From IMG/VR virus record IMGVR_UViG_2534681605_000002, positions 1,093 through 65,092 of that record: a DNA stretch of 64,000 nt. One strand, 5' to 3'. Under the pieces are notes generated by a model, which saw only the letters and a program-made list of their open reading frames with translations, had not been told where the DNA came from and did not search any database. Of this stretch, positions 9,934 to 52,500 are shown in pieces; the first letter of the stretch is position 1, and each line of letters opens with the position of its first letter. The translations under genes and the position numbers were made by a program. Source of the stretch: a virus.

Positions 9934-9943
9934 CCGATATAGA

Positions 9944-17497: not shown

Positions 17498-18817
17498 ATG
17501 AAGCCGAGAACGAAATTGGAAAAGCTGGTGACGGAGTTAAGCGGAAAACTGCCTGCCATCACGAAGGGACAGGAAGACTGGGCCAAAAAGCATCTGTTTG
17601 ATCATTTTGCCTACAAATGTAAGGATGAGCTATGGTGTTCCGAATGTGGTAAGATGTGGGTCAATACGAGTAAAGATAAATTGGGTGACAAAATCGAATG
17701 CCCTTATTGCCATCATCAATTGGACGTAAAGGTCAGCCGGAAGCAGAAGATCCATGAAGAGGCGTATATGTCCATCCTGCAAGTGAAAGGCGGGTTCCAG
17801 GTGATCCGGCATATACTATGTTGGAAAAATATTCGGAAGGAAACTTCTCCGGTGTGTTATGATTTTACAGAAGTGGTTCAAGAGTGGATTCGTGAAGACG
17901 GAAAACGTACGATCATAGCCCGACCGATTAATATGGGCAGTAACGGATTTGTATATAGTTCACCTCTCAGTATCAAAGGAAAATATGGAAGTACCCCCTA
18001 TAACTATTACGGTGATTTATATGCGATACATGGAGAGCTTTATCCAAGGAAAGAATTACTGCCGGAATTAAAAAAACGGGGACTGAATCGACGGTTCCCA
18101 GATGTAACCCCGTCGAAATTGATACGTGACTTATTGAAAGGTGGTAACGATTCGGAATTGTGTCTGAAGACCGGGCAAATCCCCATGCTGAAGCATATGT
18201 ATAGAAACGGCTTCTCCCTACTTCGCTATAAACCGTCGTTCAACATCTGCAACCGCAACCATTACATCATTAAGGACGCTTCTATGTGGGAAGATTATAT
18301 GTCTTTGCTGTCTTACTTTGGTAAAGATATGCGTAACGCCCACTATGTCTGCCCTAAGAACCTGAAAACTGCACATGATAAACTACTAAAGATAAAACAG
18401 GTACGTGAAGCCAGGTTGAGACAGGAAAGGGATCGAGCACAATCTATCAGTAAGCGTGAAAAGTTAATGAAGGATATAGCCGGCTTCTACGAGCGGATGG
18501 AAAAGTTCTTCGGATTGAGAATCGAAGAAGAGGATATAATCATCCGCCCTTTGGAAAGTGTCACCCAGTTTTATCAGGAAGGTAAGGCCATGCACCATTG
18601 TGTGTATCAGAACGGATACTACAGACGGCCGGAATGCCTGATATTGTCGGCAAAGGACACGGCTGGAAAACGATTGGAGACGATAGAGGTAAACTTGAAT
18701 ACACTGGATATCGTCCAGTCCCGATCCTTCTGTAACGGCGTAAGCGAGTATCACGATCAGATAGTAAAACTGGTGAAAAAGAATATAAATCTGATTCGTC
18801 GTAAAATGATTGCATAA
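17498..18817 (+). CDS. pcfJ: PcfJ domain protein
   Basis: MKPRTKLEK, CPYCH, EGKAMHHCVY, RLETIEV. Confidence 0.88.
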   Translation: MKPRTKLEKLVTELSGKLPAITKGQEDWAKKHLFDHFAYKCKDELWCSECGKMWVNTSKDKLGDKIECPYCHHQLDVKVSRKQKIHEEAYMSILQVKGGFQVIRHILCWKNIRKETSPVCYDFTEVVQEWIREDGKRTIIARPINMGSNGFVYSSPLSIKGKYGSTPYNYYGDLYAIHGELYPRKELLPELKKRGLNRRFPDVTPSKLIRDLLKGGNDSELCLKTGQIPMLKHMYRNGFSLLRYKPSFNICNRNHYIIKDASMWEDYMSLLSYFGKDMRNAHYVCPKNLKTAHDKLLKIKQVREARLRQERDRAQSISKREKLMKDIAGFYERMEKFFGLRIEEEDIIIRPLESVTQFYQEGKAMHHCVYQNGYYRRPECLILSAKDTAGKRLETIEVNLNTLDIVQSRSFCNGVSEYHDQIVKLVKKNINLIRRKMIA

Positions 18818-19953: not shown

Positions 19954-20760
19954 ATGGATAAGATACAACAATCAATAGATTTTCTCCGGAAGTTGGAAAC
20001 GGACGAACCGTTTTATCTTGGTTTCTCCGGCGGTAAAGATAGTGTCGTTATTTTGGATCTGGCCGAACGTGCTGGAGTTCGTTTCACCGCTACCTATGCC
20101 AACACGACGGTGGATCCACCGGGTACAATCTCTTTCATCAAAAATAATTATCCGCAAGTGGTTATTCGGCATCCGGAAAAATCATTTTTTCAGCTTGTAA
20201 GCGAAAAAGGTTTTCCATCCCGGATGCGCAGGTTCTGCTGCGAAAAACTAAAGGAGCGATATGGTATAGGTAAAAGGACGATTGAAGGTATGCGAGCAGA
20301 AGAAAGTTCGAAACGTGCATTGTATGAGCCGGAGCAGTGTGATAGTAGAAAGTGGATGAAGGGTGCAAAACATATTTTACCGATCTTATCCTGGACGGAA
20401 AATGATGTATGGCGGTATATCCGTAAGCGTGGATTGCCTTATTCAAAATATTACGATCCACCTTACTGTTTAACCAGACATGGTTGTGTAGGTTGCCCTC
20501 TGGCTCCGGTACATCAAATGCAGGCAGAATACAAATTGTTCCCCGGTTACGCCCGGCAGATGATCCGATCAATCGGAAAGTACATGGATAATAAACCGGA
20601 CAATGCAATAGCGAGAAACTTCTCTGATCCTTACGAGGCATTTTATTTCTACCTGAATGAGATGTCGATGCAAGATATACGACGATTAAAGAAAGGTTTG
20701 TTTGGATTCAATGCCAAACAAATTATTGAAAAAGAAATATTTCAAACTAAAAAGAACTAA
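19954..20760 (+). CDS. PAPS-reductase family (PP-loop) protein
   Basis: FSGGKDS, RFCCEKLKE, GMRAEES..R, PILSWT, RHGCVGCP. Confidence 0.9.
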   Translation: MDKIQQSIDFLRKLETDEPFYLGFSGGKDSVVILDLAERAGVRFTATYANTTVDPPGTISFIKNNYPQVVIRHPEKSFFQLVSEKGFPSRMRRFCCEKLKERYGIGKRTIEGMRAEESSKRALYEPEQCDSRKWMKGAKHILPILSWTENDVWRYIRKRGLPYSKYYDPPYCLTRHGCVGCPLAPVHQMQAEYKLFPGYARQMIRSIGKYMDNKPDNAIARNFSDPYEAFYFYLNEMSMQDIRRLKKGLFGFNAKQIIEKEIFQTKKN

Positions 20761-23264: not shown

Positions 23265-24296
23265 TTACCAACAAATCTGTTGTAACGAAGAAGATGGCCC
23301 ATCAGTACATAACTTACCTTTTTCATCGAAGAATAATCGATCCATACAGACCACTCTATCCCAATTCGGTTTTTGGCAATGCACATCAGCATGGCGATGA
23401 TAAACAATATACAGATCACCATTCGGAGCCTCTACTATCGAATTGTGTCCCGGTGCAGAAACCCCTTTAGGAAGATCCGTAGTCAAAAGAGGATTATCCT
23501 CACTCTTTACCCAAGGCCCCAGTGGACTATCCGCATAAGAAACCCCTACTCCATAAAACTCATAGCCGGTATCATTGGCGGAATAAGTCATATAATACTT
23601 TCCATTCTTTTTAAACACATAAGCACCTTCATTGCATCGGTTCCTATCCCAGTTAACCTTTTCCCATGTTTGCGAAGCGCCAGATATAAAAACAGGTTCC
23701 CCCATCAATCCGGAAAGGTCTTTTTTTAATTTCACCCCATAAAGTTCACCAGTAGCCAACGTATCCTGCATTCCATTTTTGCTGAAATATACATAAGGCG
23801 TCCCGTCATCATCAACAAAAATGTCTGCATCAATGGCAGAATAGCCCAAGTCGAACCAAGGAGTATAAAGATCTATAAACGGTCCTCCCGGCTTTTCACT
23901 GACAGCAAGACAAGTAAGCATCCGATCCAAATCTTTCATATAACAACTGTAAGTCATATAAAACCGCCCTTCGTAATATTTCACCTCTGGAGCCCAAAAG
24001 CCATAACAGCCGATGTGATCCTTTGGTTTACGATACAAAAGACCTTGATACTTCCACCTAATCAGGTCGGAAGAAATATAATAAGCAAATCCTTCTCCTT
24101 CCGGCAATGCAGTCGTACCTGTCAGGTAATATAAACCACCGGCTTTATAGATAAAAGGATCAGCTATATACAATTCAGTACTGTCCGTTGTTTTTAAAGG
24201 ATTCTCATAACACCTTAACTTCCTATCCGATATTTGATGACAAGAAAACAAAAAAACACTCGACAATACAAGCATCGTTTGATAAAAAAACTTCAT
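23265..24296 (-). CDS. Glycoside hydrolase family 43 lipoprotein
   Basis: Lipobox LFSC; ADPFI, WAPEV, IDADIF, NEGA, PGHNS motifs. Confidence 0.92.
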   Translation of the reverse strand: MKFFYQTMLVLSSVFLFSCHQISDRKLRCYENPLKTTDSTELYIADPFIYKAGGLYYLTGTTALPEGEGFAYYISSDLIRWKYQGLLYRKPKDHIGCYGFWAPEVKYYEGRFYMTYSCYMKDLDRMLTCLAVSEKPGGPFIDLYTPWFDLGYSAIDADIFVDDDGTPYVYFSKNGMQDTLATGELYGVKLKKDLSGLMGEPVFISGASQTWEKVNWDRNRCNEGAYVFKKNGKYYMTYSANDTGYEFYGVGVSYADSPLGPWVKSEDNPLLTTDLPKGVSAPGHNSIVEAPNGDLYIVYHRHADVHCQKPNWDRVVCMDRLFFDEKGKLCTDGPSSSLQQICW

Positions 24297-36187: not shown

Positions 36188-37837
36188 TCAGGCTCCGATA
36201 TAGACATCTCCATCATACTTTACCCATTTTGTCCCATTCCACTGAGCCAACATACCGGCCTTCAACTCATCGTTGGTTCCAGTCGATGCGACATCCTTCT
36301 TCAAGTACAGGATAGCGCCTTCCTTATTTCCCTCACTTGGCAAAGTCGCACCATCATTTGTTTTTGCCTTTACAAGATCTGGTTCCGCATCATTGAAACC
36401 GGACGTGTTCGGCTTGATCAGCAGATGACTGTATCCTTTCAACGTTAAACAGTCTGTCTGAATCGTAACATTGCGTTCAGCAGCTTCGCCCTGCGTTTCC
36501 ATATTGATATTCCGTCGCTCCTCCTCCATTTTGTAGAGAACCAACATATCAAGATCAAGACAAATACCGATCTCCGACAAACCAACTTCGTCCAGAATAG
36601 GCAAATGGACAACATTCATCGTTCCGAAAGAGCTTTCGAAGGCTTGGAATTTGATACCCCATTTCTCTCTGGATTTCACATTAATATCTTTCGTCAACGT
36701 GTAATCGACTGTCATCATATCTTCCAACAAATCCTTGCCGACACCTACAAAGGCTTCCTTGCTTCCGTTGTTACCGGTAAATTTCATTTTGGTAATACCG
36801 ATAAAATCCGCAAAGCTGAACTTACCTTTCGTATATTCATAGTGTTTCTTGATGGACCACATGATACCCTCCTGAAAATACACGTTTTCAATTCCACGAT
36901 TCGGATATTGCGCATCCTTGATCGCGATCTTACCCTTGATACCCAGCAAATAGGACACTTCGCATTTGCGACGGAATTCCCAAAGGTCATTTTCCATCAC
37001 ATCTTCCTTATCCCAGGCCACCTTTTTCTTTACATTCTCAAAATATTCGGTAAACTTGGTGTTGGACATCTTCCGCTGCATATAGACTTCGCGAGGCGTA
37101 GGCGCCTGATTGGTCGGAGGACAGAACAACTGGCTTTCGCTGCCGGCCTTGGCCATACAATACAAGGCCGTGCCCTCCGGAATAGAAGGAACATAACATT
37201 CCACGTCTGCCGGGTTTTGCTTTTTCCCATTAATGGCTACAACTACTGGAAGCCCCGACGAAGCATCCAGTGCCACAACATAAAGCATCAGATCCACACC
37301 GGGAGTGACCGTCGAACCGTCGCTTGCATAACCGTCCACTCCACGAACGTTGATTGTGTCATATACGTTAAACACACTGCCGTCCGCTGCATCAATAGGC
37401 AATGCTACACGTTTTTTACTTGCAGACTCCGTATGTTCAGCGTTCGTGATACAAGTGATACGGGAAGCATCGATATTATAATGCTTGACAACATAATTCG
37501 TTTTTCTCTTTTTCTTTGCCGCTTTTCGGGCAATCGTGTCAATCGGGAAAAAATCAGGACGGAATTTCGCAATATCCTCGTCTATGTCTTCAGCTATGAT
37601 ATCGCCCGTTTCACCACCTCTTTCCAAAGTGGTCACAGAAGTATCCTGCCCTCCTAACTGTGTTTGCAAACCCTCATGGCCTTCCGTAGCCGTACCCCCT
37701 TCTGGTGCTGGCGGAGCAACAGTCACCCCTTCAGCCATAAGGACAGATGCATCTCCAAACGCAATCCCAAGAATCATTAACACCAAGGATAAAATAAATC
37801 CCTTTTCGTTTCTCACATAATTTACAAATTTTCCCAT
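36188..37837 (-). CDS. Major capsid protein (HK97-fold, SU10/DUF5309-like) with an N-terminal hydrophobic leader
   Basis: Downstream of the scaffold gene; DIDEDIAK.RP..FP, YMQR, EFRRKCEVSYLLG, EGI, FESSFGTMNVV pattern; start MGKFVNY at 37837. Confidence 0.8.
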   Translation of the reverse strand: MGKFVNYVRNEKGFILSLVLMILGIAFGDASVLMAEGVTVAPPAPEGGTATEGHEGLQTQLGGQDTSVTTLERGGETGDIIAEDIDEDIAKFRPDFFPIDTIARKAAKKKRKTNYVVKHYNIDASRITCITNAEHTESASKKRVALPIDAADGSVFNVYDTINVRGVDGYASDGSTVTPGVDLMLYVVALDASSGLPVVVAINGKKQNPADVECYVPSIPEGTALYCMAKAGSESQLFCPPTNQAPTPREVYMQRKMSNTKFTEYFENVKKKVAWDKEDVMENDLWEFRRKCEVSYLLGIKGKIAIKDAQYPNRGIENVYFQEGIMWSIKKHYEYTKGKFSFADFIGITKMKFTGNNGSKEAFVGVGKDLLEDMMTVDYTLTKDINVKSREKWGIKFQAFESSFGTMNVVHLPILDEVGLSEIGICLDLDMLVLYKMEEERRNINMETQGEAAERNVTIQTDCLTLKGYSHLLIKPNTSGFNDAEPDLVKAKTNDGATLPSEGNKEGAILYLKKDVASTGTNDELKAGMLAQWNGTKWVKYDGDVYIGA

Positions 37838-37859
37838 CGCTTTACTTATTAAAAATTGA

Positions 37860-38615
37860 TTAATCATTCCATACGCTCGACTTGTAAGAAGGCTTTTTTT
37901 CGGCACGTTTAACCGTTGAAGCGGTGCTTGCCCCTAATCTTGGCAATCCGTCACCGGCATTATCCTTTCTCATCCTGTCAATCTTTTGATTTCTCCCTGC
38001 AACAACACCAGACTGAAAGGATTCTTCAATATCTGTCTTATAATTCATGCCATTGTACAACATTTCCAACAGTTCGGTAGTGTAGTTCCCTTTGAAAATG
38101 GGCTCAAGTATCCGGCTGTAGGCACTGTCAAGAAATTCATCGATATCGATTTTTCTGGATGTGGCAAATTCATCCAGAACCGGTAAACTTGCTTCAATAT
38201 TTACATCGTATTCCTCTTTGCTTTTACGCATGGATTCCAATTCCTCCATACGCTCTTTCTCGGCATTCTGCAAATCATTCCACTCGTCCGAACCTTCTTC
38301 TGCTCCCAAAATATCCTTTCCGAAATATCGTACAAGAGCCGAAGTTGCCCCCCTTTTGCCGCCAGCCATGTCCGAAAGGACTTGTGCAAGGCGCGGATCT
38401 TTTGAAAGTATTTCGGTCATGCGCTCCTGTGATTCGTCATTCTTTTGCCGATAATCAAGCATGTCAGAATAAACAGAGTCTTCGTCTTCACCGTAAGACT
38501 CTCCCATACGAGAACGCATATAATCCAAATAAGCCTGTTTCTTGGAAGGTTTATTTGTCGCCCCTGAAGATTCCACAGGTACTTTTTCTTCTTCGTTTCC
38601 TACATTATTATCCAT
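37860..38615 (-). CDS. Scaffolding-like protein
   Basis: Acidic, helical, directly upstream of the capsid gene. Confidence 0.65.
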   Translation of the reverse strand: MDNNVGNEEEKVPVESSGATNKPSKKQAYLDYMRSRMGESYGEDEDSVYSDMLDYRQKNDESQERMTEILSKDPRLAQVLSDMAGGKRGATSALVRYFGKDILGAEEGSDEWNDLQNAEKERMEELESMRKSKEEYDVNIEASLPVLDEFATSRKIDIDEFLDSAYSRILEPIFKGNYTTELLEMLYNGMNYKTDIEESFQSGVVAGRNQKIDRMRKDNAGDGLPRLGASTASTVKRAEKKPSYKSSVWND

Positions 38616-38724
38616 GAAATAATATTTAAAGTATTACTTTAGCAAAGTAAAGACATTATTTTGTGGTTTAATATGTTATAATGCTATATATTTGAGCCAT
38701 TATAACAAACCAAAGCATTTTTTC

Positions 38725-39111
38725 ATGGCAAAAACAGAGAACTGGCAAAAAAAAGATGATGTATTTAAGGCATACGAAAGGGCAATAAAAGAATTGGGGG
38801 ATGTCGCACGCCGGGTTCCCAAAAATACGATCATAGAAAAAGCGATGTCTTATCCGGCTCCAAGGTATTACATCACCTTAGAAGTCGCTATCAGAAACAT
38901 ATCGCTTATGTATAGAGGGATACAACCGGACATGTACAACCCCATGAAAATAGACATGTACGACAGTATTTTCAGGAAATTTGTTGCAAAAGGGCTAAAA
39001 TATCCGGGATATAGCTATTTGGAAACCATCATCAATAATGAAGCTCCTTCTTTCTATATCGAAAAAAGGCAATTTGTACGCATTATTAATGACAAATTAA
39101 AAAGAAAATGA
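38725..39111 (+). CDS. Hypothetical protein, first gene of the TerL operon
   Basis: Start MAKTENW follows a TATATTTG motif at 38687-38694. Confidence 0.7.
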   Translation: MAKTENWQKKDDVFKAYERAIKELGDVARRVPKNTIIEKAMSYPAPRYYITLEVAIRNISLMYRGIQPDMYNPMKIDMYDSIFRKFVAKGLKYPGYSYLETIINNEAPSFYIEKRQFVRIINDKLKRK

Positions 39112-39644
39112 TCCTGGTATTCATATTTATCCTTTTTTATTCCCTATCACGGTACTACGATCTAAGCGATTACGGACTGTCCTCCGGATTCCGATATTGG
39201 CAACTGATTGCATACAATTTCATACATCTGACCTTTATGCACATGTTCTTCAATTCAATCGGATACCTGATATATAAGCCGGTGATTGCAGAATATTATG
39301 GACGCAAAGCCCCAATTATAGTAATACCAATATCTGTAATCCTGTCTTCTGCAATCTTTTGCTCTGAAAAACCGACATTCGGCGCATCAACCATCATATT
39401 TTCCATGATCGGCATGTATTTAAGCAAGATATGGCAAGATGGACATTCGAAGCGACAGAAATATACAATCATGCTGCTTATAATGTTAATAATGCAGTCA
39501 ATATTCGGCTATAATGTCATTAATTGGAAAATACACATTTCAGCTTTAGCAATCTCATTCATTTTATCTCGATTATGCACGACATTCACAATGATTTCGA
39601 GATCGAAAATATCTTGGAAGAAAACAGAAAAAGACACGAAATAA
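39108..39644 (+). CDS. Rhomboid family intramembrane serine protease
   Basis: YWQL, FIHLTFMHMFFN, GAS (Ser), WKIH (His); multi-TM. Confidence 0.85.
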   Translation: MILVFIFILFYSLSRYYDLSDYGLSSGFRYWQLIAYNFIHLTFMHMFFNSIGYLIYKPVIAEYYGRKAPIIVIPISVILSSAIFCSEKPTFGASTIIFSMIGMYLSKIWQDGHSKRQKYTIMLLIMLIMQSIFGYNVINWKIHISALAISFILSRLCTTFTMISRSKISWKKTEKDTK

Positions 39645-41587
39645 TAAACGCACCATACAATCCAGTCACCGGTCTTGGCGCCGTAGGGGAACGAAAAAAG
39701 ATTTCAATAAAAGACTCCCCTATTGGCGATATGTATTTACCGGTTGAATTGATAAAAGAAAACCTGTTTATCCGTAGACTCGCCAAATACGGATTCAAAG
39801 GATATATTATCCGATTTATTAAAGAAGTGGAGTATTCCGAAGAAGCCCTAAACCAGCTTTGGATTGAATTTATAAAATATCGGATAATATACGATTTTGA
39901 ATACTGGGCCTATTCATTCATCTTTATAAAAGATAAAGTGAGCCCAAAAGATATCCCATTTAAACTAAACCGTGCGCAAAGAAGAGTACTGAATAAACTT
40001 GAAAAACTACGAAAGGCCGGAAAGCCTATCAAGTTTATCCTCTTAAAAGCACGACAGTGGGGAGGATCAACACTCGTCCAAATTTATATGCTTTGGATAA
40101 TGCTCGTACACCGTCGAAACTGGAATACCGTCATTTGTGGAGATGTGGAAACACAGTCAAGAAACGTTCGGGCAATGATCACAAAGGCTTTAAACAAATA
40201 CCCTTCTTATCTGCTTGGAGAAACGGTTAAATTCACACCCTTTGAAGGTTCAAGCAAAAACAAAGTCATTCAAAACACAAATTGTGTTGTCTCGATCGGA
40301 TCTTTCCAAAAACCCGATACACTTCGAAGCGGTGACATATCAGGAGCTCACCTAACCGAAATTGGACTTTGGAGAGCTACACCAGGCAAAAAGCCGGAGG
40401 ACCTTATCCAGTCTATATCCGGTTCCATTTATGATACAGCATATACGATTTTAGGGTTGGAAAGTACGGCAAAAGGCGTTGGTAATTTTTTTCATCGTAC
40501 ATGGCAACAGGCTGTCAAAGGTAAAAATAACCTGCTCCCCATTTTTGTAGCATGGTTTGATATTGATATTTATTCAATCCCTATTGATAACCACGAAGAG
40601 TTTATCCATTCTATGGACGAATACGAATGGGACCTTTGGAAACTGGGAGCTACACTGGAAGCTATTGCTTGGTATAGAGAAAAAAAGAAAGACATGAAAG
40701 ATATTTGGCGTATGAATTCTGAATATCCAAGCACTCCAACAGAAGCCTTTCAATCTACCGGCCGACGACGTTTCCGGCTTTCAGACACGCTCAAACTACG
40801 CGAAACTTGCATCGATCCTATTTTTCATGGTGAAATTTCAGGTTCGGAAGAAACGGGTGTAGAAAGCCTTCAGAATCTTCGGTTGTCAAAAGAAGAAATA
40901 GGCTGCTTGTCCATTTGGAAAATGCCGGATAAATCAAAACGATATCGAAATCGTTATATTGTCGTTATGGATGTAGGGGGAGTTTCAGATGAAGCCGACT
41001 ACACGGATATCACCGTCTTTGATCGCTATTGGATGATGGACGGAGGCATCCCGGAAGTGGTAGCCGAATGGCACGGCCATATCGACCATGATAAAGGCGC
41101 TTGGAAGGCTGTACAGATGGCAACATTTTATGCTGACGAGGAGGATGCTATGGTTGTAATAGAAAGTAACACGCTTGAAACAGAAGGCACGGAAGGCAAT
41201 AATTTCGAATACATCTTAGACGAGATAGCAGGGCATTACTCCAATCTCTACTGTCGCACCCCGGCCGACCAAATCAGACAAGGCGCCCCAGCAAAATGGG
41301 GATTTCACACCAACACATCAACCAAGCCTATGGTTATCTCCCATCAAGCAAAAGCAATACGGGATTCTTTATACATCGAAAGATGCGAGGAAGCCGTAGA
41401 CGAACACGACACATTTGAAATCAAAGAAGATGGTAAAACAATGGGAGCTGTTGAAGGAATGCATGATGACAGACTCATGACTCGTGCTATCGGCGTATGG
41501 ATCTGCTATCGGATAGGTCTTCCATTTGCCGTAAATACCCCAATAGCTACACCAACCCGTAAAGTCATATCGGAAGCTACAATATGA
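39575..41587 (+). CDS. terL: Terminase large subunit
   Basis: ILLKARQWGGST Walker A, LESTAKG, MDVGG, HDDRLM nuclease motifs. Confidence 0.92.
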   Translation: MHDIHNDFEIENILEENRKRHEIINAPYNPVTGLGAVGERKKISIKDSPIGDMYLPVELIKENLFIRRLAKYGFKGYIIRFIKEVEYSEEALNQLWIEFIKYRIIYDFEYWAYSFIFIKDKVSPKDIPFKLNRAQRRVLNKLEKLRKAGKPIKFILLKARQWGGSTLVQIYMLWIMLVHRRNWNTVICGDVETQSRNVRAMITKALNKYPSYLLGETVKFTPFEGSSKNKVIQNTNCVVSIGSFQKPDTLRSGDISGAHLTEIGLWRATPGKKPEDLIQSISGSIYDTAYTILGLESTAKGVGNFFHRTWQQAVKGKNNLLPIFVAWFDIDIYSIPIDNHEEFIHSMDEYEWDLWKLGATLEAIAWYREKKKDMKDIWRMNSEYPSTPTEAFQSTGRRRFRLSDTLKLRETCIDPIFHGEISGSEETGVESLQNLRLSKEEIGCLSIWKMPDKSKRYRNRYIVVMDVGGVSDEADYTDITVFDRYWMMDGGIPEVVAEWHGHIDHDKGAWKAVQMATFYADEEDAMVVIESNTLETEGTEGNNFEYILDEIAGHYSNLYCRTPADQIRQGAPAKWGFHTNTSTKPMVISHQAKAIRDSLYIERCEEAVDEHDTFEIKEDGKTMGAVEGMHDDRLMTRAIGVWICYRIGLPFAVNTPIATPTRKVISEATI

Positions 41588-41629: not shown

Positions 41630-43555
41630 TTATGCCCGGATTTGACCTATGACCTCAGAAGGAATTCCCTGAAGTTGCGCCATACGACCTTCCTCTTGGG
41701 CCTGCAACATCTCCGCTTCATCCCGCTTAATACTTTCCAAGATACGTTCAGCAAACGGAAGCGACGAATTTTCAAGCAATTGCTTGACATTTATTGCCTG
41801 ATTTTTGTAAAGCTCCATCAAGAACTCATTCATCACCATTTGATAAACCGGAGTATTAGAACCTTCCGTAATATAGACATCTATTTCTGAATCTTGCACC
41901 TTTTCCGGATCATACCATTTACTTTCTTTCGAATAGTCCGATCCGGCAAGGTCTATATATCGAGCAGAAGTATAAAATTGCTGAATCGTCTTCATTACTT
42001 TATTGTCTCGCTTCTTTTGAAAATTACGAAAAGAATCAAGCAAGCCTTTAACATTCATACTTGAATTCTGAACCTGCTGGGCATAAAGCGAAGATGGCGT
42101 ATTAGAAGATGGCGTTTGGCCTTGCATTGCAGAATTTACACCAGAAATATCATTGATAAGTTTCAATTGTAAGTTCAATAGTTCGTAATCTCCGGCAACA
42201 GCCGCAGATCCGTTATATTGATGAACGATATTCTGTATATTCTGGCCCTGTTTAAGACGAACAAAAAGCACACCATTATAACGCACATATTCATCTACAA
42301 TCTGCTCCCGGCTCATTCCCTGAAAAGCATCTTCATCCACAATGAGAAGTCCTTTCGCAGTAGACGAACGAATAAAATCGATCATCGTAAGCGTCCGGTT
42401 TATGTACTTTTGCTGATCAATAAAGTCATCAACAAAATTAAAGACTTTACCATTGACAAACGGATAAATGTTCAATATGTAATTATGCTCTTTATGCCAG
42501 TAAGGTGAACGCCCTTCCTGTAACACATCTCCGAACGGAGTCATGTAACGATAGTACCAATATTGCTCAATTGAATAGGTATATTCCACAAGAAGCACAT
42601 CTTCCGGGTCCATGCCGTTAGCTAACGCTTCTTCCATACGCTGCTTATTTAAAACATCTATCGATTTTCTGTCGGAAAGATTGGAATACCACCATTCCCC
42701 ACTCAATAGGTCACGGCAAAAAAGTGCTTCCCGACTTTCCTTTTTCCAAACAAGAATCACCCGGCAAAGATCTGGACGGGACGGCATATAAAAATCCATA
42801 TTTTTGTTCTGGTCCCCTTGTAATCCAAACGAATCAGCCCAGGTAGCCCCGTTATGATCACCGTAAATCCGATAAATATCATCACAGGTTGTTTTATCAC
42901 GGGCAAATGCGGCCACAATATCCGAAAGAGTCATATCATACATTTCCCCGATAATACGAAGATCCCATGTCCGAGGATCTTCTATATCCGTGTTGAAGAA
43001 TAACCGATAAGTATTGGTTGGATAAACCCACACATCCAAATTTTGTTTAGCCGGATTCATGCCGTACTCTACCCGTTGGGCACATAACCCTGAAAGCATA
43101 AGATTCGTCAAACTTGCAGCATCCATTTCCGTCGTTTCGTTGATCTGATGGCAATACTCAATTGCAATGCTCATCATTTCTCCAATCTTACTTTCCCTTT
43201 TGTCCCTAACAACACAAACGGGCTTCGTTTGGTTATTTCGGAATTGTCCGTCGATATTTTTCAAAATCGGGCGAATGACATTGTTTTTCAAAGGCACTTT
43301 ACCCTGCGATCGAATATATGCACTTTCTGTCACTTTCTTCCCACTTGCTGGATCAATAACAAGATCGCCCCATTGATCTTCAAATCCATACATCTGGGAA
43401 CGTGCAGCCTTCTTGCGAACCTCACTAAGTCCCCACCAAGCATTTTCAGCCTCTTTCAGCACATCTGTAGCCTTTGTCAAACTAATAGCTGACCGGGTGC
43501 GACCACCCCGCTCCACTCCCGGTTTCAATCTACGGTTATAAAACTTTCTATTCAT
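41630..43555 (-). CDS. Portal protein (P22/podovirus-like)
   Basis: FEDQW, NNVIRPI..IDG, FVDDFIDQQKYIN, ISGVNSAMQG. Confidence 0.85.
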   Translation of the reverse strand: MNRKFYNRRLKPGVERGGRTRSAISLTKATDVLKEAENAWWGLSEVRKKAARSQMYGFEDQWGDLVIDPASGKKVTESAYIRSQGKVPLKNNVIRPILKNIDGQFRNNQTKPVCVVRDKRESKIGEMMSIAIEYCHQINETTEMDAASLTNLMLSGLCAQRVEYGMNPAKQNLDVWVYPTNTYRLFFNTDIEDPRTWDLRIIGEMYDMTLSDIVAAFARDKTTCDDIYRIYGDHNGATWADSFGLQGDQNKNMDFYMPSRPDLCRVILVWKKESREALFCRDLLSGEWWYSNLSDRKSIDVLNKQRMEEALANGMDPEDVLLVEYTYSIEQYWYYRYMTPFGDVLQEGRSPYWHKEHNYILNIYPFVNGKVFNFVDDFIDQQKYINRTLTMIDFIRSSTAKGLLIVDEDAFQGMSREQIVDEYVRYNGVLFVRLKQGQNIQNIVHQYNGSAAVAGDYELLNLQLKLINDISGVNSAMQGQTPSSNTPSSLYAQQVQNSSMNVKGLLDSFRNFQKKRDNKVMKTIQQFYTSARYIDLAGSDYSKESKWYDPEKVQDSEIDVYITEGSNTPVYQMVMNEFLMELYKNQAINVKQLLENSSLPFAERILESIKRDEAEMLQAQEEGRMAQLQGIPSEVIGQIRA

Positions 43556-46500
43556 CTCCTATTTTGTCTAATTCGTTAATCATCATTTCTTTTGTCTTTC
43601 TCGCCTGTTCGTAAAGAGCTTTCTTTTCTTCTCCATCCATCAAGCGGGCCATATCATACATACTTTCAATCGCTTTTTTATAAAAGCCGGTCGTTTGATA
43701 ACGTCGGTATGCACGACTATTGGCAAAGGATTTGTAATTACCCGACAGGTCCTTACCCCCTTCGAGCCCTTTACGGTACATCCTATCCCTACTCTGCATC
43801 TCTTCATACTCTTTCACGTAATGGTTATAGCGTTCGTTTGTATAATTACGCGGAACCATATTTTCTGTGTCATAGGTCAGCCCGCTCACAACTGGGATAT
43901 TCCTAAGCTGCACATCTCCGGTTACTGCGCCTTCCACCGTTTTGTAACATTGAGCAATGGCTTTACCTACGCCACCTAAGTACTGTTCGAAAAGGTACTC
44001 TACGGCAGAAGGATTCAAAAGAGCATAATCCAATTTTCCTTTAGAGGCATAATCGCCTCCCGACAGACTATTCAGCCGTTCGGAGGCTTTGATTATCGCT
44101 TTGCTGGTTCCAGTCGTTACCTTATGATATTCTGGAACATACTTATTAAACTCGTTGCGCCCCGTGATCCGTTTCCCGAAAAAGTTCTGATTCCAAAGGT
44201 ATGCATCGGTGATCGGGGTAAACATATCCGGAGTAAATACTCGTATTGCTGTTTCTAGCCAATTATCTGAGCCTTCAGCTTCGAATGAGAAGGGAAGCAG
44301 TGTCATCATCCTGCCCGTCACATCAGCAGTAAAGCTGCGCCCCTTATATTCACCACGAAGATATTGTGCACTCATATCACCCAATCCATACAAAGCACGA
44401 AGTTCCACAGATAAGGGCAAAAGAACATATTTTCCTTCTCCTACCGGAATAATCACATTGTTTTGCCGTACATAATCTGGGATCTCGTTATATTCATCGT
44501 TATCCCCCAACAGAAGGTCCGTCAACATACAATAGGCAAATCCCAGTGTTGCCCACATGGCGATCGCCGCCGAAGCACGGCCAGGATTTGCTTTCGCTGC
44601 ACCAAGGAAATTATGCGATCCCTGAACGGCCGCATTAAAGAAGAAATAGAAGTTCTGCGCACACACAGCACCCATTGCTCCACTTCCTCTCCGATTGAAG
44701 TTCACGGATGCTTCCTTGGCCGCGCTAATACTTTGTAGTTCCGACATGCCGGTTTCTTTGGCAGCCAGATAAGTCGCAAAGCGGGACGTGTTTTCTATAA
44801 TAGAGTTGACGGTTTCGAAATAACCTCCCAGCATATTGAACACATCTTTTACTTGTAACCTACCGCCAGCACTTTTACGAACCATCCGGTCAACCTCACG
44901 TTTATACTTTTCATACCCCATAACTGCTACAAATCCCGTACGTCCACCACCTTTCAAAAAGGTTTCGTAAGACGAACGCATTTGTTTGGCTTTCGCCCCC
45001 TTTTCCTCAAAGCCAAACGAAACACGCGCAATACACCTTATGGCCGGTATGATATTTTTCAGATATCGGCCTTCGAATCCAGCTCCGTATCTTACGAAAT
45101 TCATCGTATTGGTATAGAACAAATCACGGACAAAATTTCGTATGATGAAGTTCACAGAGCGTGAGGTGTAATTAAGCATCATAAACTGCCGGATCCGGTT
45201 CAGTGCTTTTAACACACTATTATTCAAATTCTGGTTATTTAGCCCATTAATAGCTTGTGATACACGAGGATCTCCATTGATGTAAACAAGCAAATCACGG
45301 CCTCCTTCTTTTACACGGACAGTATGTTGTTTCTCTTGCCAATCCTTGACGGGGACACCGAGGGTAAGCACTTCGCGACGAGTCTTCGCCTCACCTTTCT
45401 CCCGCAGATCCTTCATCTTTTCCTCGAAATCATTAATGATCTTGGCATTTTCTGCCGGATCTTCCACCAGACCTTCGGCCGAAACAGCCTCCCACATAGG
45501 ATTGCCTTCCGCATCTACTCCACTTTTTACGTACCACTGGTTAGAAACTGCAGCTGCTTTTGTCTTACTATTTCTTACCAGATTGGCAAAACGGAGTTTT
45601 GTCAGATTCTTATACCCCATCATCGTAGCGCTTTCGTAATCATGAGCGATGTTGGCAAGTACGGCACCAGCCCTTGACTTACGCCCACGGGCTTTCTTTA
45701 TCGGGTTCGACACAATATCCTTGTCCGCATCGAAATAGTCGAACAGGTCGCCGGCCGTCGTTTCATCCCATTCCTTTAAAGGGATATAATATTCGTACAT
45801 ATTCTGCAGATTATCCCTCTCCTCACGGCCGATCAAGTTCGTCTGGTACATCTTTTCCAGCGTTGCCTGTGTGGCAGCTTCCACCGCTTTCCATAGGCCA
45901 TTAGTGCTGTGGCTATTCTCATATTTTTCAGCCCAGTCTTTCAGCTTTTGCTCTTCCATCATATCAGAATCAAAAATTTCTTTACTAAGAGCTGTAAGAC
46001 CGGAGAAGTCCTTCAATTCAAGCGACATCCGTTTCTTCTCTATAAGGTCAGACGTTTCATTTTCCCTTTCCTCTATTCTCTTATCAACGGTCTTTCTCAT
46101 GTTTTCAAGCTGTTTAGACGAATAATTACCTGATTTTTCCTTTTCCGTGAAGTAATCTTCCATTTCTTTCTTAACACGCTCAAGTTTATCCTCCTTCCGT
46201 CTTCTGTACTTCTCCAGCTCATCCTCTCTCATTTTCTTGTTCCTTTCAAGTCCATGCTTGATCATCATATAGTTTTCAACATCGCGATTTCTCTGGGCAT
46301 CAAAATGGCCGTCCACAGTAGACAGCCGGGATACTTCATCCACCAGCTTCTTAAACTCCGTCTCCTTGAATTTTTCCACATCATACTGGCTTTTCGACTG
46401 GGCTGTATTTTCATATACATACGCATTCTCAAAATCCCGTATCTTATGTCCAGTCTCTTTTTCTACTTCTTTTTGGAACTCACGAAGCGCAATCATCCTA

Positions 46501-49500
46501 TCTTGATAACCTTCCCGGAAACGCTGATAGAACTTCCGGGATGATGGTGAGGCTGATTTCAATCCTTCTATCACGCTTCTAATAGCCCTAACCATGCTAC
46601 GACGTTCTTCTGCCGAAGTGGCAAGCATCGTTCCGCTACTAACCAACGGATCACGGAACAACAATGTATCACGCATATTTCCATCTTTGGCCACTTTATG
46701 AATGATCGTAACAAGTGAATCACCTTTTTCAAGACGGTTCTTACTCTTCCATAACATATAAGCAATATCTTCATCCCGCATACGCAAATCGATTCCCAAC
46801 GACCGGAAAAATCCGCGGATGGCCGATTTTATCTTTTGCCAAATGGACGGCTCGGATACACCGTTTTCTGCAACAGAAGCCAAATACTCTTCCGTCGCGA
46901 TCCTGAAGTCTCCCCCATAGCGGGAAAGTCCGGCACGGGTAACCTTACGGCGCACATCTTCCGGTAGGTTGCGATAGACAGAATCCATCATGTCGTCAAA
47001 CTTTTCTCCTAATAGTCCGCGAAGCCCTTTATGCGCAACGACCTCGTGTAAAATGGTCGCTTGTGCGTCGGCGATGCTTTCGGCATTGGGCAAAACCAAA
47101 TATACTTCGCCAGTTTCCATATCATACCAACCTTTGGACCCTCGTTTCTTCCGTTGAGTATCTTTGTTATCGTCCGTGATATCGTTTACATCCCGGATGA
47201 TGTGTATCGGAATATGTAGGCCACTTGCCAATTCATCTACGGCAGACGATATTTTTCCCTCGTCAAGGGTTGGATTTACAAAAGATTCCACTATCTTTGT
47301 GGCAGATGAAAAGCTACTGTTTTTATCATCAACGTTAGCGGGAGTACTGCTATTTGATATAAAATCAGTAGCTTTTTTCTTGTCGACCCATTTTAGTAAA
47401 CCATCGTTTATCCATGAATAGATATCCTTAACATAGTCCTTCGGATAAATACTACGCACAGAATTGATTTCAATATTGCCAACCTTACGGTTCACCTGTA
47501 TAGCCACAACAAAATTATCTCCATTGCTTTCAAGTTCTGTTAAAACGACCTTTGCATCAATTCGTGTTTTGCTGTCAAATACCGCTATCGGATTGGCTAT
47601 AGCTTGTGGAAGATTCTCTACACTTGTCAAATTGAAAGGATGGTTACTTTTATATTTCTCAGATGCTTTAGTCGCCAATTTATCTGCACGTAACTCTATT
47701 GGCAGATAAGGGAATCCCGCAGCCTGTAAAAACCTGGACGGATTCCCCAGCTTGTAAACATGCCCTTTAGGCAAAGAACCGTCAATTTGTCGCTGTAAAT
47801 CTTCGTTGAAACGCTCGTTCACCTCTTCGATATTCCCAGAAGCCGGTGCATAAGAAGCCGGTTTTCCTAATGCGTCATCGAGGAACAGCTGGTCTTCACG
47901 CGCTACGTCTTCCGTTTCTTCTGCCAGCGTTCTCCGTCGCTCTTCCGGTGTCATAGACAAACGCCTCGATACATTACGGGCTTCTGTCTCTCCGGCATTA
48001 CGCATATAAATATTTTCAGCATCTTTCTTGCTAAGTATCCCAGTTAAATGGCTTTTACCTTCCCTATGTCCTTTTTCATAAGCATCTCTTAGTTCCTTTG
48101 AGGTATGGTAAACGGCCAGTGTCTCGATCGGCCCATAGTCTGAGTACATGTTATTTCTACCATAAAGAGGGCCCATCGCGGACCTGACAGCCCAACGCAT
48201 GTATTTATACTTTCCCCTTTTAATCAATTTTTCAGCCCTTTTGCGAATAAATGCGGCGGTATTAAGCGTATTTAAATCAGCCGTATCTATTTTATATTGA
48301 GTATCCAAATATCTGTCTATCACTGCTTCTGGATGGTCGCCTGCCTCAAAACCTTCATATGATTGAATCGCATGCTGTATCTCATGGGCGGTAGTCGATT
48401 CATAAAGCCAAGGCCTGTTATGCGCCGTATTGATAACGATTTCATTGCTTCCAAACCATCCGCTGCCATACTCGTCCGGATGAGATTCCAACCGGAATTT
48501 CAATTCTTTCAACCTGGGATAGGCCGCGAATAACTCGTCATCTTTGAGGATTTCGCTTAAGCTGTAGTTCTTGCCTTCTTCGAAATTCTCAGGTGGAGCA
48601 TATTCAAAATCCGGTGTCTCATACCGCCACTTTCCGTCAACGCCACGCTCCCAGCCGGTAGCAAGTTTGATTTTACGTGCATTTTCTCTGCCGTTCACTT
48701 GTAAAATTGAAAGCAACTTCGTATCTTTGATATCGGAATTAAGGGAAGTTGTTTGATTAAAACCGGGAGTTGTTATCCCGATTAGTGAATCAAGTAATTT
48801 CCCTTTTTCTATTTTGGAAAGTTTGTGGTCATAATAACGAGTGCCCTCTTTAGGCTTGACAATTACAGCACGAACCGTATAATCTTCACCGCCAATCTTC
48901 ATCCCACAAACATAATAGTCAAACTTTTCAGCGTCAACCTTATCGTCTGTATTAGCTTGTGATTCGATATACACAGCATTCTCGATAATCTGAGGTATGG
49001 CCGCAACGCTTTGCAGTTGCTCCGCGTTTTTATAGTCGTGGTTCAGCACCTCCTTGATAGCATTCTTGCCGACCATGACTGTTTCCCCTGTGTCTTTGTT
49101 GGTATATTCACCACGCAACCTTTTCCCATACTCCAGTGCATTCTTCTTATATTGTTTCAGATCATCGCTCGGCTCGATCTCCCTGCCTGTTATTTCCACC
49201 GGCTCACTTTTACGCAGCTTTTCTATCCGCTGCTTCTTTTCATTGAAAGCGGATTCCATCTCCCTTGCCACATTCAAGTTGTCAAGACGGGTAGTTGCTT
49301 CTTCTGCTGCATCAAGCCTTGCTGCTCCCTGCTCGCCGATAAAGCGGAAGCGAGGGTCGCTCTTCCGGGCGTTGAAGCGTTGAGACAGGGGGATGATGTT
49401 CCCTTTGTCGTCCCGGGTAACCAGGTCGTTCAACTTGCGGTTGTTCCGGGTGTCCTTATACAGGTAGTCGCTCTTGTCGTCATATCCCCATTCGTTGATG

Positions 49501-52500
49501 TCGTTCCCGTCCCAATAGAGGTTCTCAGCCGGTACACGTTCTTCCATCATCCGGTAGTCCCCCTCCAAGGCGTGGTTGCCGTGCTGCCGGGCATAGGCTT
49601 CGGAGAGTGTCACCCAGTCACCGTTCCGGACGCTTCCCTCTTTGAGTGACTTGGGCACCGCCCGGTAGATGGTGACCATCGGCTTTTCTCCTTTATCTAT
49701 GGCGTCCAACGCCTCGCTGATAGCCGCTATGCTCTCTTCCCGGTTCTTGTCCCGGTTCATGCGGAACTGTTCGTCCAGACTGTCGCGGATGTTGTCTTTG
49801 TTCTGAGCCACGTCGACCATACTCTTGTCGATGCCCTCTTCATCGTAGGAGGGGGCACGGTGCGCCATTCTGAACTCATCCGTCGACAAATAGCCTTTGC
49901 GCCGGGCGGCTTCGTTCACGAGGTCGCGCATGCGGCTCTCGTCTTGGGCTTCGACGGCTTCAAGGTAGGCGCGATCCAACGCTTCGCTCGACATCAGTTC
50001 AAACTCTTCCAGTCGTTTTCTTTCTGCTGCGGCAGCCTCCTCTTCCCGTTTGCGGGCGGCTTCCATGGCGTTGCGCTCATCCTGCGCCTGCTTGACATAG
50101 CTGTCGCGCAGTTCGTCGACATTGCCGAACTTGTCGAACAGCTCCGCCTTGACCGGGGAGAAGACCTTGACAAATTCACCCAAAGATAGCTGGTCGTTTG
50201 CCAAGCGGATGCTTCTCTTGATGCTTTTGAACGCATAGCTGGCTCCGCCCAGATTACCTGCTTTCATGGACTCTGCGTACTTCTTTACGTCTGCCTCTTC
50301 CAGTTGATGCTTCTGTGCGAACGAGGAAACATCGCTCTCCTTTGCCGTGCGAAAACGCAGGTTGTCATTGTTTTCAGCTTCCCGTTTGTCAAGTTCCTGT
50401 TGCGCCTTATTGCTATCTGTCTTTACACTCTTATATTCTGCAAACGCTTTTGTCTTGCGGTGGCTGCTACCTATCCATTTCTCGAAATCCTCCAAGTTTA
50501 CGGGGGTTACCACCGTCTTGTGCTTCTTCGCCCAATCTTTGTCATAGTTGGCGAAATAAGCCGTCTCGGCATCGGCCGCCTCATTGAAGCCAAGCATTAC
50601 CTTATGCTCGTCAAAGCTGCCGTCCTCGTTGTATTGATCCACCACAAACGCTTTTCGACCGTTCCACCCATCAATATCATCAGATAGGAACACATCTATA
50701 TGGTCGCCGTCCACGCCCTCCGTACCACGAATGTAGCCGTAGGTGTTCTGCATGGTCGTTTCCCACTTCTTACCATTAGCATCCACGCCACTACGAACAG
50801 AACCTTTCGGTTGCTCGATGCTAATATCAAATGTACCTACACGCACATGCCCTTTCTTGTAATTGCCGGCTTCCTTCTGGGCTTCGGTAGGATTTATATC
50901 GGTATTTGCTTCGGCATCTGCAATTTTTTCGCTTAACCCACTGTTATTACGAGATAAATCACTATCTTTGTCGGTAGAAGACAAGTCAGACGGAAGAGTG
51001 GAAAGGCTTGCCGCCGCCTCTTTAGAGGCCAGTATGAGGAGTTCGCCGCCCTCACGTTTGGCTTGTCTTTTTATTCTGTCAAGATTCCTATTATCCAGAG
51101 TGTACCACCCTACAATTTCCACATTATCCTTGTTGCTGTTTACTTCAAGAACAACTATCGGACTTTTATCATCCAACTTTATTACAATCCAGTGGTTCTT
51201 TTTGGTATTCGGCTGCGACTGTCCTACAATGTCAGGATTATATAAAGCTCTCTCCAATATATCCCTACTTGATTGAGGAGTAAAGGCATGAGCCTTGCCG
51301 TTCTTATCGAATATGTTCTTCTTTATAATAACACGCTTTCCGTCAGCTCCGATTGCATCAGACACATTCTTTGGAACAACGGGCAACCCTATAGTGCGAT
51401 AAGGAGATGTAAAGTCTTCATCTGTTATATCCGATACACTACTTACATCCTCGATAATAAGATTACCTTCGGAGTCTATAGGATTACCCTGCCTATCTAT
51501 TTCTCCGGGTGCGCTTTCTTGTGCAACTCCATTCGCGCGATCAACACCGGGGCCAGCCGGTTCTCCTGCTTCAATTTCTTCACTTCGCCCGGTCTGAGCA
51601 GATTGTTCTCCTTGCAGTATCTCGCTGCCTCCTTCGCGTAAGACATCGCCTCCGCTTTCGTCATTTCCTTCAGTGTTTTCATCTTTTTCTGTTCTATTTT
51701 GTGCCAATATAGCATCTATTTCTTCCAGTTCCTCCTGGATTGCCTGAATTTCGTCAGCCATCTGAGAATCCAACTCAAATTGTTCTTCATCAGTAAGCAG
51801 ATTTTCTTTAAAATCACGAACAACCGCATCTTCGTATGCCTCATAATCTTCAGGCGAAAGGTGATAATTTTCCTCGCACCAGCGAGCATATTCGTTATAT
51901 TCTGCCTGCCGTATCTCCTCGGCTTTCGCTTCGCGGCGGTTCTTGATGTAGTTGATCAGATCGCCACGGGTACGCGCAGTCGAGAGCACCTCAATAATAG
52001 CATTACGACCGGCATTCGGATCATTCTGGTCAAAGAAATTAGAACCGTTCTCCAAATCCGCTTGCATCAGGATTTCGCCGGCACGCTCTATCGATACACC
52101 ACCTTTATCTTTCCCGGCAAACAATCCAAACAGCGAACGGGATTCAGATATACGCCCTCCGGTTTCACGTCGATAATCATCCTGCAGCAACTTTATAGAA
52201 CCATTGGCCAGCATTTGCGCAGCCAGTTCTTCCCCGCTTTGTGGTGCAGTATTACGCATTAAATTAATAGCAGCTTCTTCACCCGGTTTCACACGGGCAT
52301 CCTGCAATTTTGATTTAATATCTTCCCAATAGCTCTTTTCCTGTTCGATAGGCTTCCGCCCTTCTTCCCACTCTTTTTTTCTGGCTTTATAACCGTCTAT
52401 ATCAAGCTCCATCACAGGAGCCTTTTTGCCCGACTCGGTTAAACGCCTTTCTGCATCAGAAATATGATTATTTACAAACTGGTCCACTTCTTCAAGTGTC

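Follow-up and report, generated by a model that had tools for sequence, protein, structure and literature searches.

In the usual view, tailed phages have soluble capsid proteins that stay in the cytoplasm, and where these are processed, this is done by a soluble protease inside the procapsid. In the head maturation of HK97 and T4, a soluble prohead protease removes the N-terminal propeptide of the capsid protein inside the procapsid. In the staphylococcal phage 80alpha, the N-termini of the capsid and scaffold proteins are cut by the host protease Prp, a cytosolic cysteine protease. Signal peptides of the Sec pathway are cut by signal peptidase I (LepB), and the insertion of the M13 procoat protein is a familiar point of comparison. 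Here, we analysed a phage head locus in which the major capsid protein starts with a hydrophobic, signal-like leader and a rhomboid, a putative intramembrane protease, is encoded nearby in the same operon as the terminase. The DNA analysed, called the window in the following, has 64,000 nucleotides and comprises the bases 1093-65092 of the 65-kb virus record IMGVR_UViG_2534681605_000002, whose close relatives sit in Parabacteroides genomes. Our results suggest, rather than prove, a membrane route of head building in a gut Bacteroidales phage.

The locus was compared with these systems. Similar to HK97 and T4, there is an N-terminal segment that would not belong to the mature shell, and relatives without the segment use the same module. 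In contrast to HK97 and T4, no prohead protease was found in the open reading frames scanned, the leader is hydrophobic with 35 residues and not a long coiled-coil, and the candidate protease is membrane-embedded and cannot sit in the procapsid. The 80alpha system shares a short N-terminal capsid leader and a protease that is not of the classical prohead type, but its enzyme is a cytosolic host protein and no membrane step is involved. Like Sec signal peptides and M13 procoat, the leader has a basic start, a hydrophobic core and a polar end with small residues, and the consensus of the family is A-M-A with an acidic stretch free of lysine and arginine (K/R) thereafter. Unlike them, the passenger is an HK97-fold capsid protein that must work in the cytoplasm, Leu is found at -3 in the site of the window and the n-region is long and conserved.

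The enzyme shares the rhomboid fold, the Ser-His pair and the H-x4-H-x3-N motif with Escherichia coli GlpG and with Providencia stuartii AarA, which activates the membrane protein TatA by taking off a short extension at its N-terminus. As in the AarA-TatA pair, a short N-terminal extension would be removed beside a membrane helix, with a small residue before the cut (P1) and a hydrophobic residue at P4. However, the enzyme described here is phage-encoded, has 156-188 residues without a cytoplasmic domain and lies inside the terminase operon. The candidate substrate is a capsid protein with a predicted N-in orientation, opposite to that of TatA and other type I substrates. A rhomboid-family gene is also present in the temperate phage DLP5; in the available part of that paper (PMC5834331) it is listed as a moron and no link to the head genes is made, whereas the rhomboid gene described here is conserved within the packaging operon.

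In full-text searches, no literature was found in which capsid assembly is connected with a rhomboid of a phage or with a leader of the signal type. The words 'phage', 'virus' and 'viral' are absent from the available portion of a 2025 review of the rhomboid superfamily, as are 'protease' and 'propeptide' from the accessible text of the phicrAss001 structure paper. If leader and rhomboid are linked as proposed, a head maturation step would for the first time be assigned to an intramembrane protease, and the production of capsid subunits would be tied to the membrane and to packaging. The rhomboids, for which few bacterial substrates are known, would also gain a natural substrate that is abundant. 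If leader and rhomboid are unlinked, a signal-like leader on a capsid protein still needs an explanation. Complete phages with the leader almost always carry the minimal rhomboid inside the terminase operon. Since three related GenBank phages have known Bacteroides hosts, the question is directly testable.

Capsid leader and phage rhomboid

Our best reading, which we hold tentatively, is that the phage rhomboid cuts the capsid leader or acts on it in another way. The features on which this reading is built are the following.

36188..37837, minus strand: major capsid protein gene, 549 amino acids (Pfam SU10_MCP 3e-9; phrog_26635 2.5e-46; HK97 fold by AlphaFold2/Foldseek)
37733..37837, minus strand: capsid leader, residues 1-35 (read from the letters; conserved among 36 distinct leaders; modelled as a helix over 2-26)
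37589..37732, minus strand: acidic linker rich in Pro, Gly and Thr, residues 36-83, between the leader and the HK97 fold (predicted local distance difference test, pLDDT, <50 over 29-83)
39108..39644, plus strand: minimal six-helix rhomboid, 178 amino acids (Pfam Rhomboid 1.3e-13; GlpG 5e-14 by profile)
39387..39389 (Ser94), 39534..39536 (His143) and 39225..39254 (H40/H45/N49), plus strand: rhomboid catalytic residues, invariant among relatives

The product of the capsid gene is an HK97-fold major capsid protein by sequence match, fold and place in the head module. The Pfam family SU10_MCP (PF17236) was matched with 37.3 bits at a cut-off of 24.1. In an AlphaFold2 model built on 38 sequences, residues 2-26 form a helix, 29-83 are disordered and the HK97 fold comes thereafter, and the best Foldseek matches of the model were the capsids of Vibrio phage VP1 (5e-17), phicrAss001 and SU10. 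The open reading frame extends over 36188..37906 (-) with the first in-frame GTG at 37906. The ATG at 37837 yields the N-terminus that had been quoted in an earlier reading of the letters alone (the sequence-only reading). Another ATG in the same frame, at 37867, shares bases with the stop codon of the gene before it. The hydrophobic segment is kept from either ATG.

The leader has basic residues in positions 1-13, a hydrophobic core at 14-27 and then G28-D29-A-S-V-L-M-A35, followed by E36. Its mean Kyte-Doolittle hydrophobicity is 2.7 over 15 residues, with the basic start before, and the n-region is conserved in sequence as M-K-K-x-F-x-F-L-K-x-E-K. Capsid homologues were found in a number of 78, and the leader is conserved at the protein level down to about 24% identity. 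All of 36 distinct leaders have Ala35 and one of V, M, I or L at position 32, and 28 have E or D at position 36. Helix-destabilising residues are frequent near the site: G28 occurs in 27 of the 36 and D29 in 20, and position 31 is G or S in 31. The leaders have 2-5 K/R ahead of the hydrophobic core, and 0-3 K/R and 1-7 D/E in the next 40 residues.

The family was then surveyed more widely with the 150 best representatives (50% clusters) from a search of 1.84 billion proteins. Of these, 149 were examined (P0036 was omitted) and 13 were dropped as fragments or for having no Met start. A hydrophobic N-terminal leader was present in 111 of the remaining 136 full-length representatives, and the aligned consensus of the leader end reads G-(D)-x-[G/A/S]-x-A-M-A, then A, V or E. 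Our results support that the leader is translated and conserved and that the shell can do without it.

If the true start were downstream of the hydrophobic segment, the leader would be an annotation artefact. In-frame Met residues are indeed found at positions 21 and 34, and a leaderless clade starts at a Met that is aligned to residue 34. However, the 36 distinct leaders and the 111 representatives show conservation with conservative substitutions, and several relatives, e.g. P0023, P0025 and P0028, have no Met near the junction. A wrong start codon was rejected for these reasons and is extremely improbable. A lipoprotein signal was also rejected, since a Cys near the site is found in some relatives only and not in the window.

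The leaderless clade is a sister clade of 80 IMG/VR loci. Its capsid proteins start at M-A-E, exactly aligned to the L-M-A-E of the leader-bearing proteins. The open frame reaches at most about 25 codons further upstream in all but a few loci, and the longer frames (L016, L036 and L074/L075) contain no hydrophobic segment. On a quick maximum-likelihood tree of the capsid proteins, computed without the five rows L010, L026, L109, L110 and L111, the clade forms a single group (support 100) that branches from within the lineages with a leader. We conclude from this topology that the leader was lost once, at the proposed cleavage junction. The leaderless clade retains the same scaffold and module order, and the 36-83 linker is kept in leaderless relatives, too.

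The gene at 39108..39644 encodes a rhomboid with an intact catalytic set and is a predicted protease. It matched the Pfam family Rhomboid (PF01694; MEROPS S54) with 51.8 bits at a cut-off of 22.6. A profile of 10 relatives matched E. coli GlpG at 5e-14, with H40, H45 and N49 aligned to the H..H..N of GlpG, and the residues H40, H45, N49, T90, G92, S94 and H143 are invariant in all 10 aligned rhomboids. When 12 rhomboid lineages were compared, which have pairwise identities of 16-41% with three close pairs at 67-74%, the H, H, N, GxS and distal H were kept in every one. The H-x4-H-x3-N motif belongs to helix 2, the catalytic Ser of GxS to helix 4 and the catalytic His to helix 6. The AlphaFold2 model (pLDDT 76) has 7 helices, of which a short one at 30-39 precedes, and aligns to, the start of GlpG helix 2. 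In the Foldseek search with this model, all of the first 37 rows were rhomboid-fold proteins (33 GlpG chains and 4 iRhom) with a template modelling score of about 0.5 and weak E-values from 1.7e-2. A W-R motif in loop 1 is expected of the family. The window rhomboid has Y-W-Q at the aligned place, the relatives vary and loop 1 is very short. In all 12 lineages, 6-12 K/R are found on the side of the N-tail, loop 2, loop 4 and the C-tail, compared with 0-4 on the side of loops 1, 3 and 5. This bias points to a GlpG-like seating with the active site open to the periplasm.

The rhomboid gene is embedded in the head region. On the minus strand lie a scaffold-like gene, the capsid gene, a small decoration-like gene and an SU10-type adaptor gene, and on the plus strand, divergently, a small conserved gene, the rhomboid gene and the gene of the large terminase subunit (terL):

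37860..38615, minus strand: scaffold-like protein, 251 amino acids, encoded directly before the capsid gene (phrog_22323 1.1e-18; no match in Pfam)
38692..39111, plus strand: small conserved protein at the head of the divergent operon (128 amino acids from the ATG at 38725; phrog_27246 1.4e-9)
39575..41587, plus strand: large terminase subunit, terL (phrog_2 5.2e-18; N-terminus aligns with terL of related loci)

From capsid start to rhomboid start the distance is 1.27 kb. The stop of the small gene and the ATG of the rhomboid share the sequence ATGA at 39108-39111, and the 3' end of the rhomboid gene overlaps terL, where the first in-frame start is at 39524 and the ATG supported by homology is at 39575. 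No terminator-like site was found between 38500 and 39700. A protein of 237-279 amino acids is encoded at the position of the scaffold-like gene in the related loci mapped. Homologues of the small gene precede the rhomboid, or directly terL where the rhomboid is missing, and the product of 38692..39111 is possibly the small terminase subunit. The rhomboid was found within the packaging operon across at least 20 lineages. Our results support that it belongs to the head and packaging module as a conserved component with an intact catalytic set and is not a stray insertion.

Other proteases were searched for in the window with Pfam (38 open reading frames) and PHROGs (8 open reading frames), with about 50 mostly short frames outside the scan. 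No protease family besides the rhomboid was detected in the scanned frames, and the prohead protease families S78/U35, S49/ClpP-like and U9 were among those absent. The scaffold-like protein was considered as a fused protease-scaffold and set aside, since it had no family match and no serine protease motif was noticed.

These scans bear on another explanation, in which the leader never enters the membrane. It would then be a hydrophobic assembly propeptide that becomes buried as the procapsid forms, in the manner of a delta domain or of a helix that binds the scaffold. Such a propeptide could be kept, or a soluble protease that escaped recognition could remove it. This would agree with the cytoplasmic site of capsid assembly and DNA packaging, with an n-region that is conserved in sequence beyond what is usual in signal peptides and with the separate scaffold-like gene adjoining the capsid gene. 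However, a core of this hydrophobicity after a basic start is what cells send to the membrane, no soluble protease was found in the 38 open reading frames, and the leader is cleanly lost in a clade with the same scaffold and module order. We consider a propeptide outside the membrane quite improbable.

The sequence-only reading had described a capsid protein with a basic n-region, a hydrophobic helix, small residues and a Pro/Gly linker ahead of the capsid fold, and this is borne out by the sequence, the 36 leaders and the model and holds more broadly than that reading had seen; its reservation that the start may be mis-called is answered by the conservation across the homologues and by the two ATG codons. 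Its rhomboid, about 1.3 kb from the capsid gene, overlapping terL and coupled to the upstream gene, with HxxxxHxxxN, GAS and the distal His intact, was recovered in this arrangement, and no prohead protease of the HK97 or ClpP-like type that it could have overlooked appeared in the scanned frames.

Distribution of the leader and the rhomboid

The GenBank Bacteroides phages BF1-TP2, BS-TP4 and BKO1-TP3, with about 30% capsid identity to the window, all have the leader, the rhomboid and the gene order of the window. In the records PQ571263, PQ571277 and PQ571269 (L001-L003), terL is labelled 'tail spike protein' in all three and the capsid proteins are labelled DUF5309 or DUF2951, and the rhomboid of BKO1-TP3 is labelled 'glycoside hydrolase'. 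The order small gene, rhomboid and terL beside scaffold and capsid was found again in loci of IMG/VR, of metagenomes and of GTDB.

For a wider count, loci were gathered from IMG/VR, from contigs of metagenomes and from GTDB genomes, and local profiles were used to score them. For the rhomboid a multi-lineage profile was used; a single-sequence jackhmmer search from the window rhomboid gave near copies only, and tblastn of the window rhomboid against phage records had no match despite divergent copies in three records. After exclusion of duplicates, the final table held 167 loci with a near-full capsid gene, which formed 76 clusters at 90% identity. Absence of the rhomboid was claimed only when terL was in view or the whole genome was searched. 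A view of +-9 kb was unsafe for prophages, as in G896 the operon of small gene, rhomboid and terL is 40 kb from the capsid gene. The clusters were distributed as follows, with three more not scorable for the leader.

terL in view, leader and rhomboid: 17 clusters
terL in view, leader, no rhomboid: 2 clusters (L104, L105)
terL in view, leaderless with rhomboid: 1 cluster (L090)
terL in view, leaderless, no rhomboid: 28 clusters
terL not in view, leader and rhomboid: 3 clusters
terL not in view, leader, no rhomboid: 17 clusters
terL not in view, leaderless with rhomboid: 0 clusters
terL not in view, leaderless, no rhomboid: 5 clusters

Mixed combinations of leader and rhomboid were observed in only 3 of the 48 clusters with terL in view. 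In L167, where the rhomboid is present, the leader is below the hydrophobicity threshold but plain by eye. Co-occurrence of the two across relatives, as expected by the sequence-only reading, is seen in the 17 clusters with both and the 28 with neither; the mixed clusters do not agree with it, the independent contrasts are few and the pattern is mostly shared descent.

The independence of the association was analysed on a terL tree of 37 rows, from which L011, L054, L064 and L072 were dropped for a short terL, and L016, L024 and L136 were left out. Three independent, well-supported pairs differ in the rhomboid. The leader changes with it in one pair and is unchanged in two. In the concordant pair, BS-TP4 and BKO1-TP3, which have leader and rhomboid, are nested beside the leaderless and rhomboid-less L058 with 95% support, and this counts as a second, independent change in which both go together. 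The small gene and terL of BS-TP4 and BKO1-TP3 are close to those of leaderless IMG/VR phages (L058, L073), while the capsid gene is very distant. Since the modules are mosaic, the rarity of mixed combinations becomes more telling, but this is an argument and not a statistic.

Several findings weigh against a functional link between leader and rhomboid. Given the 111 of 136 representatives with a leader, a rhomboid-bearing phage with a leader is near the base rate. The independent contrasts are too few, and an association test has no power at these numbers. The two uncoupled pairs on the terL tree are L104/L105 versus their rhomboid-bearing sisters and L090 versus L085. L104 (G001) is a complete, terminally repeated genome of 59 kb with a leader-bearing capsid protein, in which the small gene lies directly before terL and no PF01694 match was found anywhere in the genome. 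The fragment L105 is likewise without a rhomboid at the usual place. The provirus fragment L090 is the converse case, in which the rhomboid is intact and the capsid gene leaderless; when 21.5 kb of it were searched for further structural genes with a leader, none was found and the matches were shadow frames. A leader without the rhomboid, or the reverse, had been named in the sequence-only reading as a case that speaks against it, and with the complete genome of L104 and with L090 both exist.

A further group of exceptions was found in bacterial genomes. About 17 of 401 sampled Bacteroidales genomes contain a leader-bearing capsid relative of about 460 residues, and within 9 kb of this capsid gene neither a rhomboid nor terL was detected, and a homologue of the small gene in L208-L210 only. 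Capsid genes of about this length make up most of the 17 leader-bearing clusters with neither rhomboid nor terL in view. A phage-type rhomboid was not found in these genomes at E <= 1e-10, and in two of them, rechecked at 1e-5, again none was found. The loci L200 6825-16247 (G292) and L208 4309-16566 (G312) from GTDB Bacteroidales are small islands flanked by an integrase gene that contain scaffold, leader-bearing capsid, decoration and adaptor genes, a gene for a protein of about 960 residues and lysis genes, with no portal or terminase gene within 9 kb. These islands look like capsid-encoding phage satellites of Bacteroidales, and our guess is that a helper phage could supply what they lack.

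In another explanation, the rhomboid has a role apart from the capsid. It could cut a membrane protein of the host or of the phage itself and so serve take-over, exclusion or the timing of lysis, or it could be an anchor for the packaging machinery, and its link to the leader would be no more than shared descent of neighbouring modules. This would account for L090, with its intact rhomboid and no leader in view. It also fits that the rhomboid always travels with terL, even when the capsid genes are 40 kb off or rearranged, that the independent contrasts against shared descent are too few and that, in the available part of PMC5834331, a rhomboid membrane protein is among the morons of the Stenotrophomonas phage DLP5. 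On the other hand, mixed combinations are rare although the modules are mosaic, and an acidic residue after the proposed cut tracks the rhomboid, as described in the next section. In addition, the capsid gene is the only gene of the virion module (26.5-60.4 kb, rhomboid excluded) with a hydrophobic N-terminal segment; other single-pass proteins of the window are in the lysis cassette (24.4-26.3 kb) and in the early region. A role apart from the capsid is therefore improbable in our judgement.

Remnants of the operon of small gene and rhomboid were observed in L164 9095-10062 and, together with terL, in L169 7721-10585. They lie beside host genes with no capsid gene nearby and are probably decayed prophages.

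Cleavage site and membrane topology

According to the available part of Strisovsky et al. (2009, PMC2941825), rhomboids need a small residue at P1, a large hydrophobic one at P4 and a hydrophobic one at P2'. The same text names Glu among the P1' residues favoured by AarA, cites earlier work for a preference of GlpG for a negative P1' and reports that Gly at P2' of TatA is not accepted (PMC2941825). For the type II rhomboid substrate Star, it discusses a suggested loop-back (PMC2941825).

For the capsid leader, the cleaved bond was assumed to be after Ala35 and the P positions were counted from there. P1 is then Ala and P4 V, M, I or L in all 36 distinct leaders, P1' is E or D in 28/36 and P2' is A, V, M or I in 28/36. 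The conserved leader site, as read from the alignment, fits the published rhomboid preferences at P1 and P4, and often at P1'. When the sites were read by eye, an acidic P1' was found in 15 of 20 rhomboid-bearing lineages, whereas the 18 lineages that have the leader but no rhomboid showed it in no case. The capsid tree reduces this comparison to two independent contrasts, both concordant. The acidic P1' thus tends to go with the rhomboid. A bulky P3, unusable by signal peptidase I, was also tried as a mark of the rhomboid and rejected, since L220 (F-A-M-A|E), L246 (M-A-M-A|G) and L250 (G-A-M-A|A) carry the rhomboid.

The site and the topology add to the points against cleavage by the rhomboid. 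P2' is Gly in the window, and P1' is non-acidic in five rhomboid-bearing lineages. Across the family, the leader ends in the consensus A-M-A and P3 is small in 62 of 85 aligned sites, which is similar to a site of signal peptidase I. By the positive-inside rule, the leader is predicted to be N-in, which is the reverse of the known type I rhomboid substrates with their N-terminus outside. An N-in leader would also mean that the capsid domain is exported, whereas assembly and packaging take place in the cytoplasm. At the same time, this orientation would bring the cut site to the periplasmic side of the membrane, on which both enzymes, the rhomboid and signal peptidase I, act.

Signal peptidase I requires small residues at -1 and -3. 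The window site has Ala at -1 and Leu at -3, with an n-region and core of the signal peptide type. The leader could be an ordinary Sec signal peptide cut by the signal peptidase I of the host, with the rhomboid in a secondary role or in none, at most clearing leftover leader peptides. In favour of this, the consensus A-M-A is followed by A, V or E and has a Gly or Pro a few residues before, with P3 small as noted above. Leader-bearing elements without a rhomboid do exist (L104, L105 and the islands), a dispensable helper would account for the patchy loss of the rhomboid, and host membrane proteases are available, since the host genomes encode rhomboids of their own, which are longer. However, the P3 Leu of the window and the L or M in 11 of 14 tabulated rhomboid-bearing rows are poor by the -3/-1 rule. 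Cleavage by signal peptidase I also gives no account of why, among the clusters with terL in view, 17 of 19 with a leader have kept the rhomboid with its invariant catalytic residues while 28 of the 29 leaderless ones are without it. The problem of exporting the capsid domain is the same. We regard this explanation as a serious alternative, though rather unlikely.

For the rhomboid, the proposed mechanism would be as follows. The first 35 residues of the capsid precursor would act as a leader of the Sec or signal recognition particle type and bring its N-terminus to the cytoplasmic membrane. The basic start would stay inside, and the conserved V-L-M-A|E site would be presented on the outer side. 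The leader would be cut at or beside the invariant Ala35, so that the mature capsid protein starts at about Glu36, which corresponds to the natural N-terminus of the leaderless sister clade. The phage rhomboid, from the same operon as the terminase and with its active site on the same periplasmic face, would cut the leader or at least act on it. One possibility is that only the leader and a loop of the disordered 48-residue linker enter the translocon, are cut and slip back. Membrane insertion, cleavage, the identity of the protease and the retention of the capsid domain in the cytoplasm are steps that we infer.

A broader form of the proposal is that heads are assembled via the membrane in a large family of gut Bacteroidales phages, with the leader clipped before subunit assembly by the phage rhomboid or, in relatives and satellites where the rhomboid is missing, by the host signal peptidase; this we consider doubtful. 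The sequence-only reading, which is partly supported, had proposed that membrane-tethered capsid subunits are released by the phage rhomboid. Of this, the conserved leader, the intact rhomboid, their co-distribution and the fit of the motif were found, while the exceptions, the N-in topology and the competing signal peptidase speak against it.

Other genes of the window

Downstream of terL, the genes are again on the minus strand with the portal gene followed by the gene of a polyvalent protein of 3738 residues.

41630..43555, minus strand: portal protein (Pfam P22_portal 3.5e-33; phrog_156 2.6e-52)

The polyvalent protein gene (43548-54764, minus strand) adjoins the portal gene, and its product matched the Pfam families InPase, LPD13, LPD3, LPD23, MuF_C and LPD38. 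An H-E-x-x-H motif is present in its sequence, yet no peptidase family was found in it by Pfam.

Just past the lysis genes, a glycoside hydrolase family 43 gene (23265-24296, minus strand, 4.2e-55) encodes a protein with a hydrophobic N-terminus and is likely a moron. Integrase-like genes are located near both ends of the record. The gene at 4089-5336 (minus strand) has the full Arm, SAM-like and catalytic domains, and the one at 60476-61957 (minus strand) has Arm and SAM-like matches only. The G+C content is about 50% in the first 6 kb of the window versus 34-46% across most of the remainder. The early region of the phage contains a tRNA-Met gene (9859-9935, plus strand), and the early genes include those for a PcfJ-like protein (17498-18817, plus strand, 5.5e-38) and for a PAPS-reductase-domain protein (19954-20760, plus strand, 5.3e-19).

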